DNA from: a virus
Taxonomy: Duplodnaviria > Heunggongvirae > Uroviricota > Caudoviricetes
Direction: 5' to 3' (one strand)
IMG/VR virus record: IMGVR_UViG_2681813223_000009
Length of the DNA stretch: 19,879 bases
In this document: in pieces, positions 6,001 through 18,000 of the stretch
Position numbering within the stretch: position 1 is the first letter of the stretch
How the letters are laid out: the number at the start of each line of letters is the position of its first letter
Made by a program: the position numbers

Positions 6001-9000
6001 CCCGTCAACTGGTTGCTGAGGTTCAGCCGATATGGCACCCGTTTCAGGTGAGAGAATGAACGATAAAATTCTCTGGTATATGCAGCGTGTTGTGAGAAAT
6101 TCCCGCAACCCTGAATTTATGAATGAAGTTAAAGACGCCTGCCTTAAAAAGCAGGCGTTTTGTTTTGAGGCACCTGATGGCTTTTTGGTGCTGCGTTCTG
6201 TGCTCAGTGCTGATGGTATCCCTTATGTTCTGGTGTTGCTGGGCGTGTGTACGGGGAGTAACAGCGTTGAGCGTTACCTGCCGGAGGTGAAGACATTAAC
6301 CCATCTGGCTGGCGGACGCTGGGCTGAGTTCCATACGGCAAGGCGGGGATTTATCCGGCTGGGAAAACGACTGGGCTTTGAGCGAATGCCGGATGATGAG
6401 GATGGCTTCATGGTGTTCAGGATAGCGGTCTGACTGCTACAGTTTTCATCATTGTGTTTAAACCAACATTGTAATTCACATTCTGACCCTGCTCCGGCAG
6501 GGTTTTTTGTTATCCAGGGGGCCATTATGGGTGGAAGTAAAGGCGGTGGTGATACCAAAGTAAAACCAACAGCAGCGCAAATAGCACAGGAAGAAGTGGC
6601 CTGGAAAGGGTGGCAGGATTACAAAAATATCCTCCGCCCGGCTGAAGATAACTTCATGGAAAAGGTCGATGACCTGAACAGTGAGCAGCAGTACGACAAT
6701 ATTGCTGGCACCACAAATCTGGGGTATCAGAAACAGTTTGGCGAAGCACGGAAGGAGCTTGCGGGTAATCTTGCTCAGTCCGGCGTTGACCCATCCAGTG
6801 GTCGTTTTAATGCGGTAATGAATGCGAACCAGAGTGACCAGGTAACCGGGCAGATTGACACAACCACACGGGGGCAGGTATCGCAGGCAGATAAGTATGT
6901 TGCCGGGCTACAGGATGTTGCTGCTCTCGGTTCTGGTCAGAAGGCGGATGCGTTACAGAGTTTTAACTCTCTGGCAGACAGCAGTCTGGCAAAAGCTAAA
7001 TCGGATGCACAGGCGGCGTTTACGAAACAGCAGGGGCGAGCCTCTCTTGTTGGCGCTGGTCTGGGTGCGGCAGGTGCATATGCGATGCATAAGGCTGGCG
7101 GTAGCGGAGGAAGTGGCGGTGCTAAAACACCTGGCACCGGCGCTAATGCCATTCAGCATCAGGCTCAGAACTGGAGACTGTAATTATGGAGTATGGCAAA
7201 TACGAAACTCTCGCAAGGGCTGGTTATTCAGGAGCAGACCGCCCACAGGGTGACTGGCAGACGTCAGCAGCGCTGACACGCCAACAATACGACGACTGGC
7301 GAACCAGATATTTGCCCCGCGTGGCAAGGCTGGCTGACCTTGGGGAGAACAACAGTCTGATGAATGCACAGCTTGCACGGGTGGGAGGCCTTGCCACTTC
7401 CAGTCTCCGTACAGCGCAGATGGCGCAGGATAACCAGATGGCGAGATACGGGGTAAACCGCCCGGATAATCCCGACAGTAATACGCTGGGGTTACGTAAT
7501 GCCCTGGCAATTGCTGGCGCGAAAAATGGTATCCGTGAAGCCGAACAGGATCGCCAGATGAATATTCTGACGGGGGCTTCTGCACCGGCAAGACAGAAAC
7601 TGAGTGTTGGCGGCCAACTGGTGGCAGCGTAAGGGGGCAATATGGGATACGGTTTACTGGATATTGCAAATCAGTCGCGGCGTGAGGCATTACAGGGAAT
7701 AAGTGACGCAGACAGACGACGTGAAGAAATTGAGGCTGCGAACAAACAGATGGCGGCGCAACAGAAAGCGCAGAACAAGCAGAATATCGGTACGGGCATT
7801 GGTACGGGGGCGGCTATTGGCGCATCCGTTGGTGGTCCTGTTGGTGCTGTTGCTGGAGCAGTAATTGGCGGCATTGCTGGTTCTTTGTTTTAAGGAGTGG
7901 TGAATGAGCGGATTTGCACAGGGGTTACTTGCCGGATTCAGCACCGTTGACCAGGCAATGACCCGTCGTAAGGAGCTTGGTCTGCGTGAAGCACAGCTTG
8001 CCCGGCAACAGAAAAATAACGAGCGCGATTTTGAGTTTGCGCAGTCTCAGTTTGAACATAATAAAAACGTTGATCAGCGGAACTTTGATTACAGAGCCAA
8101 AGTTGACGACCGTAATTATGCACTGAAGGAGAGGGAGTTTAACGCTAACCAGAATTACCGGAATGCGTCACTGGGTATGGAGCAGCAGCGACTCCAGTTG
8201 CAGAAATACAACCAGCGACGGCTTGAGTATAACGATATGATTGCCCATAGCCAGCCACTAATGGAAGCGCTTGGAAAAGCAATTGAGGCTGGCGATCAGG
8301 AGGCTGCAACGCGTCTGTTCGGGCAGCTGCCAAAGGGACATCCATTAATTCTTATGTCAAACGAAGGCTATGCAGCGAAAGCGGGTCAGGCCGTGATCAA
8401 CCTGCAAAAAATCTTTGGTGATAAGCCGGACATGGCGATCGATTCGCTGAATACCCCGGAAAATCTCGATGTGCTTTCCGGCGTGTTTGCCCCGGAACTA
8501 CAACAGCGTATTGGCATGCCTGATTCAACCGGGGACAAAACGATAAAAGAGGCCAGGATTGGCAGTATCGTACCAGCGCAGCAGGAAGGGTACGTACTTA
8601 TTGGCCTTGATCTCACATACAGCGATGGCTCCACCGCGCATAAACCTGTAACAGAATACGGCAGTGCGCACCCTGATGATCAAACCGTGCTGGCGATACC
8701 CGTTGATAAGGCTATCGCTCAGGTCAGGGATCGCAGCAAATTTGCAGAGATATCGAAAAATTATGGTTATTTTATGCCGAAGCAGCAGGGACTTTCTCTG
8801 AAAGAGCTTCAGAAGGGGGCCAGCAACGTAGCGGCGGACGCGATCAAGAATGGCGGTAATGCTCAGGCTGCGGTGGATGAATATTATGCTGCGACTGGTT
8901 CACAACCGCATCAACAGAAAATTCAGCAACAAAAACTTCAGCAACAGGTTATCAACTGGGCGGGAGATGATCCTGACAAGCTGTCATTTGCCAGAAATGT

Positions 9001-15000: not shown

Positions 15001-18000
15001 GGACGACAGTAACAACGCTTATATGGCGGAAGAACTCTTCCACGGGAAGGCGGAAAACGACCTGAACGTGATGAAGGAGCGCTACGTTCAGCCACTGGCT
15101 AAATTACTGGCGGACTACAAAATTGCGCAGGCCGATCTGGATGAGTACCTCTACGCCCGTCACGCGCCGGAACGTAACGCGCATATCGCGAAAATCAACC
15201 CGAAAATGCCGGACGGCGGTTCGGGGATGACCAACGCGGAAGCGGCGGAAATCATGCAGCGTGTACGTAACAGTGGCAAACAGGCACAGTATGACCGTCT
15301 GGCAGGGATTATTGACGATATGCTGGCCCGTCGCCGTGAGCTTATCCGTGAGGCCGGACTTGAAGAGAACGGTGTGGTGGATGCCTGGCAGAACGCCTAC
15401 CGTTACTACGTTCCCCTGAAAGGTCAGGATGTTGACGGTGTGGTGTCACTGCCCCGTACAGGTAAGGGCTTCACCATCGGCGGACGTGAAAGCAGGCAGG
15501 CCATGGGGCGTGCATCCCGGGCACAGTCTCCGTCCACTCAGGCGATACAGGACCTGAGCGAATCGCTGATCCGCCATCGCAAAAACGAAGTGGGTAACGC
15601 CTTCCTGAAACTGGTGCAGGATAATCCCGACAAGGATTACTGGCAGGTATTCACCGATGACAGACCGGATACCATGCGGACGATTGCAGAGCGCAAGGAC
15701 CAGGAAACTGGTGAAACCATTCGCGAAGTTGTCGAACGCCCTGTACCGATGGCAATGATGGCAGACCGGTACTTCACCACCAAAAAGAACGGCAAAACGT
15801 ACTACATCAAACTCCATGATCCGCGCCTGATGCGTGCGATGAAGAGTATGGGACCGGAAACCAGCAATGCCTTTGTTCGTACGCTGGGGAAAGTTAACCG
15901 CTTCCTGGCAACGGTGAACACGTCGTATAACCCGGAATTCCTGGTCAGTAACTTCATCCGTGACGTGCAGACGGCGGTGATGAACCTGAAGGCGGAGCAG
16001 GGAAGGAGCGACGGTAAACTGAAAGGGCTGGATAACTTATCCGCCCTGGCTGTGGTGAAAGACAGCCGTTCTGCCATGTCAGCCGTATACGCCAGTCTGC
16101 GTGGTAAAACCCTCACGGGAAAAGGTGCACAGTGGCAGAAGGTGTGGAAAGAGTTTGTTGAGGACGGAGGGAAAACCGGCTGGTTTAACATGGGTGACCT
16201 TGAAGGCCAGCAGAAGGAAATGGATCGCCTTGTCTCACTGGCGAAGGGGGGATGGAAAGGCCAGAGTATCGGTGCATGGAATTCGTTCCTTAACCTTGTC
16301 GAGGATGCCAACGGTGCGGTTGAAAACGCTCTGCGTCTTTCTGCCTATAAGCACGCCCGTGATGCCGGTTTGTCACGCCAGCAGGCGGCGTCTCTTGCCA
16401 AAAACATGACGGTGAACTTTAACCGTCGTGGTGAGCAGGGGGCGCTGATGAATTCGCTGTACATGTTCGCCAACGCCAGCATTCAGGGAACGGCAAATCT
16501 GGTGAGAACGCTCGGACATCTTAATGGTGAGGGACCTTTACTGGAGCGCCTTCGCTGGAAGAATCTGAATGTTCCGCAGAAAATCGCGCTTGCCGCTGTG
16601 GGAGCAGGTTATCTGCTTGGCTCGCTTAACCGCAGCGTGGCGGGTGAGGATGATGACGGGGTTAACTGGTATGACAAGGTGCCGTCTCATGTGAAAGAGC
16701 GTAACCTCGTCATTATGAAATCGGTGTTCGGGGGCAAGGCCGGAGAGTACTGGAGTATTCCTCTGCCTTACGGGTACAACGTTTTCTTCCTGCTCGGGCA
16801 TACTGCTGAAGGTGTGGCGGCGGGTGACCTGACGGCGTCCCGTGCTGCCGGTAATGTTGTTGGTGGTGTGCTTGGTGCATTCAGCCCGATTGGCAGTGAG
16901 ACGTCGGAAACACTGTCCGGGGCATTGCTGAAAAATGCAGCGCCGACCATTCTGCGTCCGTTTGCGAACCTTGCCATGAATGAAAACTTCATGGGGGCGC
17001 AGATTTACCAGGAGAACATGCCGTTTGGTACACCAAAACCTGACAGCCAGCTGGGAAGACGTTCAACGCCAGAAGCGTACAAGGCGTTTGCATCCTGGCT
17101 GAATGCGTTCTCAGGTGGCAGCCAGTACCGTCCCGGCGCGGTGGATATCACACCGGAATCGCTGAAATTCTGGATTGACTATATCTCCGGAGGGACAGGG
17201 CGCTTCATTTCCAAAACCACGGATGCGGCGGTGAAATCGCTGAATGGTATTGATATACCGGAACAGCAGGTGCCCTTCCTGGGGAAAATTTCGGGGGAGG
17301 TGATGCCGTATGCAGACCAGCAGAAGATGTACGACCGGATGACAGAGATTGCGCAGTATCACGCAGAGCTGAAGAGTCTGACCGGTGCAGAAAGAACGGC
17401 GTTCATTGACGAGAACAACGGAAAATTGTCGATGAACGGGCTTATGCAGGATACCCGGAAGAGACTGAAGGATTTGCGTAAACAGCGTGATGCCATTTAC
17501 GCCGACAGTACTCTCAGTCTGGCGCAACAGTCGGCGATGGTGAAATCGGTAGAGCGGGATATGAAAATTGCCGTGGATCGGTTTAACCGCGAGTACAACA
17601 AAAAAGTGGGAGTGGATTAACAGAAATGGCCCCGTACGGAAGTGCGGGGCTGATTAAGAAATAAACACTCATTGACCTGTAATAACCGGAGCTATTAACA
17701 TATAGTCAGAAGAGCATTTCATGTGATACAGAGAGCCGATTTATGTTTAATGAAGAAAAAGTTGCGCAAATGGCAGCGTATTTGCTGAAAAAGCATGGCG
17801 GATCTATGCGTTTCATTAAGCTGAAGCAGCAACGGTAATGGCGAATAGCATTTATGAGCAAAATAATCTTGATATGTTATTAGGCGATCTGATGTAACCG
17901 GGATGATGTTCACCCCTTATCGCCGGGGAACAATACCGGCAATCAGAATTGCGGATGGAACTATTCAGGCCCACGATGATATCGATGAGGAGTTTTTTCA

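Follow-up and report, generated by a model that had tools for sequence, protein, structure and literature searches.

Shiga toxin (Stx) phages spread Shiga toxin genes, and their entry into the cell is poorly understood. Those of the 933W type are short-tailed phages of the Sepvirinae, genus Traversvirus, and published work on two near-identical phages, Sp5 and phi24B, bears on a block of late genes whose last product is a giant protein of 2,793 amino acids (aa) and 308 kDa. The block is considered here in a stretch of 19,879 nucleotides (nt; the window) from IMG/VR virus record IMGVR_UViG_2681813223_000009. By megablast against a phage collection, the window matches the Stx2-converting phage 933W (AF125520 / NC_000924) and many Stx phages over its full length at 100% identity, the only differences from 933W being three single-base changes and ten N at 18656-18665. 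Five genes of the block are 933W L0130-L0134 (ST933Wp68-p72), and a sixth, L0129, precedes them. The reading favoured here, with a probability of roughly 0.7, is that L0129-L0134 form the distal core of the virion-structural late operon and that the products of L0130-L0134 are head-internal ejection proteins that deliver effector enzymes.

The genetic evidence comes from Sp5 (VT2-Sakai), in which each gene was deleted in frame (Mondal et al. 2016, PMC5155283). Sp5 ORF76-ORF80 (ECs1238-ECs1242) encode proteins of 218, 148, 83, 421 and 2,793 aa, the same lengths as L0130-L0134 (PMC5155283); these and phi24B vb_24B_44-48 are the same genes as L0130-L0134, with proteins 97-100% identical. ORF79 (L0133) and ORF80 (L0134) are among nine newly identified essential Sp5 genes: either deletion gave zero plaques and zero lysogens, and each was rescued in trans (PMC5155283). 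In both mutants the DNase-resistant packaged DNA was normal and the heads looked normal, with no binding of a tail-fibre antibody (data not shown in the paper) (PMC5155283). The ORF76 (L0130) deletion mutant still formed plaques and yielded very few lysogens, and ORF77 (L0131) and ORF78 (L0132) were dispensable (PMC5155283). Ejection proteins are needed for infectivity and not for head assembly or packaging, which is the phenotype of ΔORF79 and ΔORF80 and, in part, of ΔORF76; ΔORF77 and ΔORF78 are without defect.

The virion evidence comes from a preprint on phi24B (bioRxiv 10.64898/2026.04.10.717836), in which the tail was modelled completely (portal, two adaptor rings, nozzle, fibres and needle) and the giant, gp47, was abundant in purified virions, absent from the cryo-electron microscopy (cryo-EM) map and proposed to be an ejection protein. 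The phi24B homologues of L0130-L0134 are gp51, gp50, an unnumbered 86-aa open reading frame (ORF), gp48 and gp47, and share 98.6%, 98.0%, 100%, 100% and 97.1% identity with the proteins of the window. Spectral counts from the preprint supplement refer to the purified virions used for cryo-EM, and the listed ORFs were matched to phi24B genes by coordinates. All five homologues have peptide-spectrum matches (PSMs): 523 for that of L0130 (phi24B 46349-47128), 129 for L0131 (47095-47577), 13 for L0132 (47581-47838), 1,634 for L0133 (47852-49114) and 10,962 for the giant (49136-57568), compared with 2,226 for the portal and 17,998 for the major capsid protein. The giant ranks second, behind the capsid protein only, and this count supports its packaging; since 62% of its gel PSMs lie in four slices above the portal peak, it is present in virions mostly at full length or as large pieces. 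All five products are thus present in virions of a phage nearly identical to 933W, and none is in the cryo-EM model, which places them, like ejection proteins, in the virion and outside the ordered capsid and tail.

Two of the five had very probably been discarded. The preprint text treats as contaminants, with annotation as the sole ground, ‘a transcription regulation factor’ and ‘a homolog of a bacteriocin’ (bioRxiv 10.64898/2026.04.10.717836), and the proteins meant are very probably the homologues of L0133 and L0132. The phi24B record describes the 421-aa gene as ‘similar to putative transcription initiation factor’, and the spreadsheet has ‘gp48 Transcription factor?’. L0133 is regarded here as a genuine virion protein, because it is essential in Sp5 and the N-terminal peptide (residues 2-21) of its homologue was detected in phi24B virions; it is abundant there, and the transcription-factor label was apparently the reason why it was set aside in the 2026 preprint. 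The misleading labels lie at 7642-7893 and 7904-9169 of the window and at phi24B 47590-49117.

Mondal et al. took the ΔORF79 and ΔORF80 phenotypes as tail-assembly defects, and the main rival reading follows theirs, with L0133 and L0134 as tail-assembly or tail-structural proteins and the small proteins as minor tail parts. It accounts for lysates with DNA-filled, normal-looking heads that the tail-fibre antibody leaves unlabelled, and for a block that adjoins the tail genes. The phi24B tail, however, is complete in the model with no density given to the abundant gp47, and a 308-kDa protein at measurable copy number should show on a short tail. Tail attachment could, moreover, be destabilised indirectly when internal proteins are missing. 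The AAA+ ATPase assignment of Mondal et al. (a COG1483 hint) was not reproduced and was dropped, as the giant has no Walker A motif and no ATPase Pfam match. A tail function for the block is therefore regarded as unlikely, and the head-internal reading is retained.

The arrangement of the block is conserved well outside the Stx phages. A tblastn search with L0133 matched some 100 Vibrio phages weakly, and likewise Aeromonas phage phiARM81mr. In phiARM81mr and Vibrio phage D80, the genes after the tail-fibre gene encode proteins of ~120-130, ~200-210, ~117-124, ~77-85, ~466 and 3,066-3,190 aa; with phmmer, the counterparts of L0129-L0133 score 86, 172, 91, 71 and 42 bits in phiARM81mr, and those of L0129-L0134 score 16, 49, 21, 35, 34.5 and 897 bits in D80. 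The L0133 family alignment retrieved 76 IMG/VR loci, of which the 30 divergent ones (22-41% identity) were scanned with profiles from three phages. The order L0129, L0130, L0131, L0132, L0133 is kept in 30 of 30, with an L0129 orthologue directly 5' of the L0130-like gene in 29 (locus L075 begins inside the L0132-like gene). A giant ORF (1,848 to >3,282 aa) comes next wherever the contig continues, five loci ending before the giant gene; the N-terminal profile of the giant matched in every locus with a giant gene, and the C-terminal profile usually did. The conserved unit is six genes, L0129-L0134, strictly kept from Escherichia to Vibrio and Aeromonas phages. This unit is not described in the Sp5 and phi24B literature, where only the giant is treated as an ejection protein.

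In D80, phiARM81mr and other distant relatives the block directly follows the tail genes. In 933W, lom (4868-5602, 3' of the tail genes) and a hok-like locus stand upstream of the block, and are therefore inserted cargo; L0126-L0127, which precede them, are counted among the insertions. A first-pass annotation, made from the sequence of the window, had described a five-gene accessory module placed where non-essential cargo is carried and not assignable to a described system. Its five genes are real, and the conserved unit has six, starting at L0129. The accessory role does not stand, as Sp5 ORF79 and ORF80 are essential, ΔORF76 lowers lysogenisation and relatives keep the block behind the tail genes; nor is the system undescribed, being covered by PMC5512222, PMC5155283, PMC9144972 and bioRxiv 10.64898/2026.04.10.717836. 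The same annotation had seen a likeness to internal-core or ejection protein sets and to injected multidomain proteins, which is borne out by the five products in phi24B virions and the polyvalent domains of the giant, and the very large late ORF of some short-tailed lambdoid phages to which it pointed is L0134 itself. Its interpretation is, on balance, partly supported.

A recurrent insertion site lies where the L0133-like gene meets the giant gene, or just before that point. It falls at 12539-13330 (- strand) in locus L004, 14801-16660 in L005, 11590-13612 in L073, 11614-13192 in L074 and 11569-12529 in L076. The D80 junction holds an HNH endonuclease on the opposite strand, and unannotated gaps of 1-2 kb are found in phiARM81mr and several IMG/VR contigs.

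In more distant relatives the last part of the layout is retained. Podophages of the Bcep22-like (Lessievirus) and Ralstonia GP4/Cimandef-like groups have a portal, capsid and nozzle akin to the 933W ones. Their structural module has the giant gene in last place, after small virion proteins, and both the C-terminal module of the giant and, via phrog_8003, the L0130 family are shared with 933W. The positional equivalents in the Bcep22-like phage JC1 (gp64, gp67, gp68 and gp69) are in virions by mass spectrometry (PMC9144972), and the JC1 portal, capsid and ‘head closure’ proteins are homologous to the 933W ones. Ralstonia phage Gamede has gp39 (L0130-like via phrog_8003), a PAPS reductase moron, gp41 and a 4,639-aa giant. 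The giants of these phages differ from that of 933W in their length of 4,500-4,640 aa and their SLT, methylase and LPD3 domains, and the PAPS reductase and acetyltransferase morons are interleaved among the genes. A further difference is the ~510-aa protein upstream of the giant, in which homology to L0133 is not detectable: for Gamede gp41, the positional analogue, hhalign found none (probability 0.2). In Bacillus phage Palmer, gp18, a lytic protein and a 1,678-aa giant adjoin.

The giant gene (9239..17620, + strand, as are all its parts) encodes what appears, by domain set and by position beside virion genes (last in the structural late region of 933W, as in all its relatives), to be a ‘polyvalent protein’ in the sense of Iyer 2017 (PMC5512222). 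The first part is a conserved N-terminal region (9686..10828, aa ~150-530; aligned by phmmer with the D80 giant over aa 169-523 at E 8.6e-33), which contains a glycine-zipper-like segment with a weak Gly-zipper Pfam match (aa 406-433). LPD5 follows (12389..12838, aa 1051-1200; Pfam 153-158 bits), and then a zincin-like metallopeptidase region (12782..13558) that is CLCA_X-like and carries HEWFH, a HExxH motif, at aa 1284; it matches NCBIfam CLCA_X over aa 1182-1437 at 149.8 bits, short of the cut-off of 260 set for the family as a whole, and LPD1 lies at aa 1361-1440 (Pfam 84-87 bits). The next region (13646..14308) has HEIIHH at aa 1551, which aligns with HEILAH in D80 and HEVLAH in phiARM81mr, and is a putative variant metallopeptidase of the HEXXXH type described by Iyer 2017 (PMC5512222); a canonical HExxH reading of HEIIHH was dropped, given the HEILAH and HEVLAH of the homologues. 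MuF-C (14486..14755, aa 1750-1839; Pfam 61-64 bits) is followed by a C-terminal module of ~900 aa (14846..17617, aa 1870-2793) that includes LPD38 (aa 2476-2681; Pfam 147-163 bits). According to Iyer 2017 (PMC5512222), MuF-C is PBECR, a predicted RNase and not the peptidase named in the phi24B preprint, LPD5 is among the potentially enzymatic LPD domains, and LPD38 occurs in phage-type members only. No tape-measure or tail-fibre match was found in the giant against Pfam and PHROG, and the phage is a podovirus; such a homology, or a failure of the genes to be conserved together, would have spoken against the first-pass interpretation.

The likeness to polyvalent proteins (PMC5512222) thus lies in a very large multidomain protein encoded among virion genes, with zincin metallopeptidase, MuF-C/PBECR, LPD1, LPD5 and LPD38 domains. 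That class was defined computationally as conflict effectors, whereas the 933W giant is essential and ends in an invariant module of ~900 aa. The domain set would also fit a giant with no other role than to be injected against host defences or for host takeover, in the manner of P1 DarB, in a block that is accessory and without a DNA-delivery role, and related giants are annotated as DarB-like and have methylases or ParB-like nucleases. DarB, the namesake of that annotation, is itself a large head-packaged protein delivered with the DNA. In the literature, however, it is a non-essential anti-restriction factor with a methylase-helicase pair; the 933W giant is essential and gave no methylase or helicase Pfam match, its only link to DarB being phrog_10089 over the C-terminal region. 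The giant is needed in Sp5 even on K-12 with phage induced from K-12 lysogens, where a simple anti-restriction reading predicts no need and is therefore disfavoured, and its N- and C-terminal modules are conserved whatever the central cargo. A purely anti-defence giant is quite improbable, and an ejection protein with effector cargo is preferred.

Three parts of the giant are conserved across phages: aa ~170-520, the HEXXXH region at aa ~1470-1690, and the last ~920 aa. Between the conserved ends, the centre varies among relatives. Enterobacterial prophage-type loci have LPD5, LPD1 and MuF_C there, loci L071 and L076 have InPase, and phiARM81mr has a methyltransferase and ddrB-ParB; Gamede has an Eco57I-type methylase and LPD3, with an SLT lytic transglycosylase at the extreme N-terminus (aa 56-148), and no central domain is recognisable in D80, L063 and L079.

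The C-terminal module is both large and widespread. In a full HMMER search with the last 924 aa against 1.84 billion representative proteins, 8,532 clusters matched at E <= 0.001, of which 4,763 reached E <= 1e-30. Among the 150 listed matches, nearly all cover almost the whole query and end at the C-terminus of the protein, in proteins of up to 5,181 aa, and the shorter entries look like fragments. A confident AlphaFold2 (AF2) model from 40 diverse sequences (predicted local distance difference test, pLDDT, 84.5; predicted template modelling score, pTM, 0.81) is mostly helical with one beta-sheet domain. Among the BFVD viral models, the whole fold (TM 0.6-0.87) is seen again in the closing segments of many giant phage proteins, including that of E. 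coli phage PTXU04 at 15% identity, and the LPD38 giant of PTXU04 is needed for efficient infection (CRISPRi-ART preprint). The module, at ~900 aa, is far larger than the Pfam LPD38 model of 189 residues.

The four small proteins encoded before the giant, L0130-L0133, contain 14-18% Gly, 15-18% Ala and 8-11% Gln, and had no match above threshold in Pfam and NCBIfam, NCBIfam giving glycine-zipper noise only. L0130 (6527..7183, +) has 218 aa, is Gly/Ala/Gln-rich and ends in a glycine-zipper-like tail; its family, phrog_611, and phrog_8003 ‘virion structural protein’ match reciprocally. L0131 (7186..7632, +) has 148 aa and an isoelectric point (pI) of 9.7. L0132 (7642..7893, +) is a glycine-zipper protein of 83 aa with the hydrophobic segment at residues 57-75, a sub-threshold match to Pfam Gly-zipper_YMGG (25.7 bits, cut-off 28.9) and a weak match to the hydrophobic segment of a tape-measure PHROG, and is a probable membrane-inserting component. 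The Gly/Ala-rich hydrophobic stretches at the L0130 C-terminus and at aa 406-433 of the giant resemble L0132, and such common stretches explain the cross-hits between the L0130 and L0132 profiles.

L0133 (7904..9169, +; 421 aa, 47 kDa) is 17% Gln+Asn. Its AF2 model is of moderate quality (pLDDT 69, pTM 0.39) and runs from a 116-residue N-terminal helix through a helical region and a small beta sheet (213-266), which holds the invariant residues, to C-terminal helices; it was kept out of the fold search, as matches at pTM 0.39 would be unreliable. A first homologue search returned near-identical E. coli sequences alone, and a second used a profile of distant members. Within Salmonella prophages the family is highly diverse, at ~37-100% identity to one Salmonella-type member (P0246-P0360). 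The sequence comparison suggests that L0133, an essential virion protein, evolves fast. L0129 (6032..6433, +; 133 aa, 15 kDa, pI 8.9), the conserved first gene of the block, has no homologue among the listed phi24B virion proteins, and deletion of Sp5 ORF75, its equivalent, caused no defect (PMC5155283); L0129 may act on the internal proteins as a chaperone or assembly factor.

The mechanism that follows would begin with L0130-L0134 packaged in the head lumen as internal proteins, apart from the ordered tail. At infection they would most likely be expelled ahead of, or with, the DNA. The glycine-zipper segments of L0130, L0132 and the giant N-terminal region, together with the long-helix L0133, would help to breach or bridge the envelope, possibly as a conduit, and packaging and translocation would fall to the conserved N-terminal region and ~900-aa C-terminal module of the giant. 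The enzymes of its centre, which are exchangeable, would reach the cell as effectors, which in 933W would be LPD5, one or two zincin-like peptidases and the MuF-C/PBECR RNase, and might have anti-defence or host-takeover activity; the peptidases may cut the polyprotein after delivery. Ejection, and a role in the passage of DNA across the envelope, are suggested by the analogy with T7 and P22, by the glycine zippers and by the lytic transglycosylase in or next to related giants.

Several observations weigh against this interpretation, beside the tail-assembly view of Mondal et al. Exit of the block proteins from the virion and their entry into the cell are argued from analogy, and nothing tested matches T7 gp14/15/16 or P22 gp7/16/20 in sequence or fold. 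The giant, L0130 and L0133 have no meaningful sequence match in the PDB, and a Foldseek search of the PDB with the model of the C-terminal module gave no match (best E 0.2). The giant contains no 19-residue segment of strong hydrophobicity, and no peptidoglycan hydrolase domain is recognisable in any protein of 933W-type blocks. L0131 and L0132 are dispensable in the laboratory. The presence of L0132 rests on 13 PSMs, and the phi24B authors treated the homologues of L0132 and L0133 as contaminants.

The analogy with T7 gp14/15/16 and P22 gp7/16/20 lies in several head-internal proteins that are encoded after the tail genes and needed for infectivity, not packaging. The SLT domain of T7 gp16 has a counterpart in the Ralstonia giant homologue and none in the 933W version. 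No sequence or fold likeness between these sets and the block was detected, and 933W has one 308-kDa protein in place of three mid-sized ones. A tentative extension, less probable than not, is that the block is a distinct podophage ejection apparatus with a fold unlike those of T7 and P22, in which the C-terminal module, the glycine-zipper partners and L0133 would act as a translocation device that carries exchangeable enzymes on the same polypeptide.

The block is compact. The gaps between L0130, L0131, L0132 and L0133 are 2, 9 and 10 nt, that between L0133 and L0134 is 69 nt with ATG 9239 as the start, and a GGAG- or GGGGG-type Shine-Dalgarno site precedes each start from L0130 to L0134 (for L0134, ATG 9239). 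The ORF calls, Shine-Dalgarno sites and composition of the small proteins agree with the first-pass description of the layout, including its spacing of 2-10 nt, and its length of about 2793 aa for the giant matches the start at ATG 9239 with its GGAG site. GenBank and RefSeq start the giant at ATG 9200, which gives 2,806 aa in place of 2,793; this start is doubted because it has no Shine-Dalgarno site and overlaps a hairpin (9202-9221). In the 2,806-aa translation, the PHROG 616 alignment begins at residue 14. The 9239 start was used in designing the primers for the Sp5 deletion (PMC5155283 supplement), and the Sakai annotation agrees with it. An N-terminal peptide that would fix the start codon was sought among the listed phi24B peptides and not found. 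From the sequence context, the database start at 9200 is probably wrong and 9239 is favoured.

The hairpin at 9202-9221 (+; -15 kcal/mol, z = -2.6) is terminator-like, is followed by a T7 run and lies directly 5' of the Shine-Dalgarno site of the giant gene. A second terminator-like hairpin (6485-6504, +; -16 kcal/mol, then a T run) lies between L0129 and L0130. Read-through of both should be expected in a Q-antiterminated late operon; possible roles are to shield the block from lom/hok transcription in the lysogen or to fix how much giant is made relative to the small proteins. A strong GC-rich stem-loop without a T run (17628-17651, +; about -21 kcal/mol) lies 8 nt past the giant stop codon and may be a transcript-stabilising or processing structure that ends the late operon.

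Between lom and L0129, a hok-like ORF of 46 aa (5835-5975, +; MSQKSLITVTICMTVIFTIWMLHGSLCEFRLNLWGAEFAAFLQCKQ) scores 33.2 bits with Pfam HOK_GEF (cut-off 22), in agreement with the first-pass placement of the block after the tail genes, a lom-like cassette and a hok-like locus. A sub-threshold Rfam sok match covers 5686-5848 (35.6 bits, E 4e-6); at gathering thresholds, Rfam gave zero matches in the window. The hok/sok-type toxin-antitoxin locus (5686-5975, +) is without annotation in both 933W records and is a second hok locus besides hokW. The N run at 18656-18665 stands for 198 nt of 933W (record 58481-58678) that hold hokW/mokW and the start of sokW, so that in the window it masks the known hok locus, which lies downstream of the giant gene.

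In RefSeq the products of L0130-L0134 are named ‘hypothetical’, ‘hypothetical’, ‘bacteriocin’, ‘hypothetical’ and ‘LPD5 domain-containing protein’. The name given to L0132, and the proximity of the block to lom and hok, which are lysogen-expressed morons, could suggest a moron or toxin cassette, such as a bacteriocin, that is expressed from the prophage and benefits the host. L0132 was rejected as a class II bacteriocin: Bacteriocin_IIc scores 19.7 bits against a cut-off of 27.1 and covers the glycine-zipper segment alone. The GC content of the block (0.51-0.54) is like that of structural genes and unlike that of L0126-L0127 (0.42) or lom (0.46), the tail-gene synteny holds in phages without lom and hok, and the products are in virions, two of them essential. 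A host-benefiting cassette is thus extremely improbable beside a set of ejection proteins.

The genes, the essentiality of two of them, the domain class and the ejection hypothesis were already in print, so the discovery value is modest. What is added is the six-gene unit, a reading of the raw proteome that puts all five products in the virion, a map of the giant with its invariant ends and variable centre, and an account of how large and widespread the C-terminal module is and of its orphan fold, together with corrections to the databases and the preprint for ‘bacteriocin’, ‘transcription factor’, ‘MuF-C metallopeptidase’, ‘AAA+ ATPase’ and the 2,806-aa start. For the Stx phages, nine essential Sp5 genes were without an assigned function, of which the block accounts for two, and the giant gene uses 14% of the genome. 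With its products in virions, a conserved unit around it and invariant ends that flank swappable enzymes, the giant is a tractable target for work on short-tailed phage entry and protein delivery. If the block is indeed a distinct ejection apparatus, it would be a modular effector-delivery platform in thousands of phage lineages, Stx phages included.

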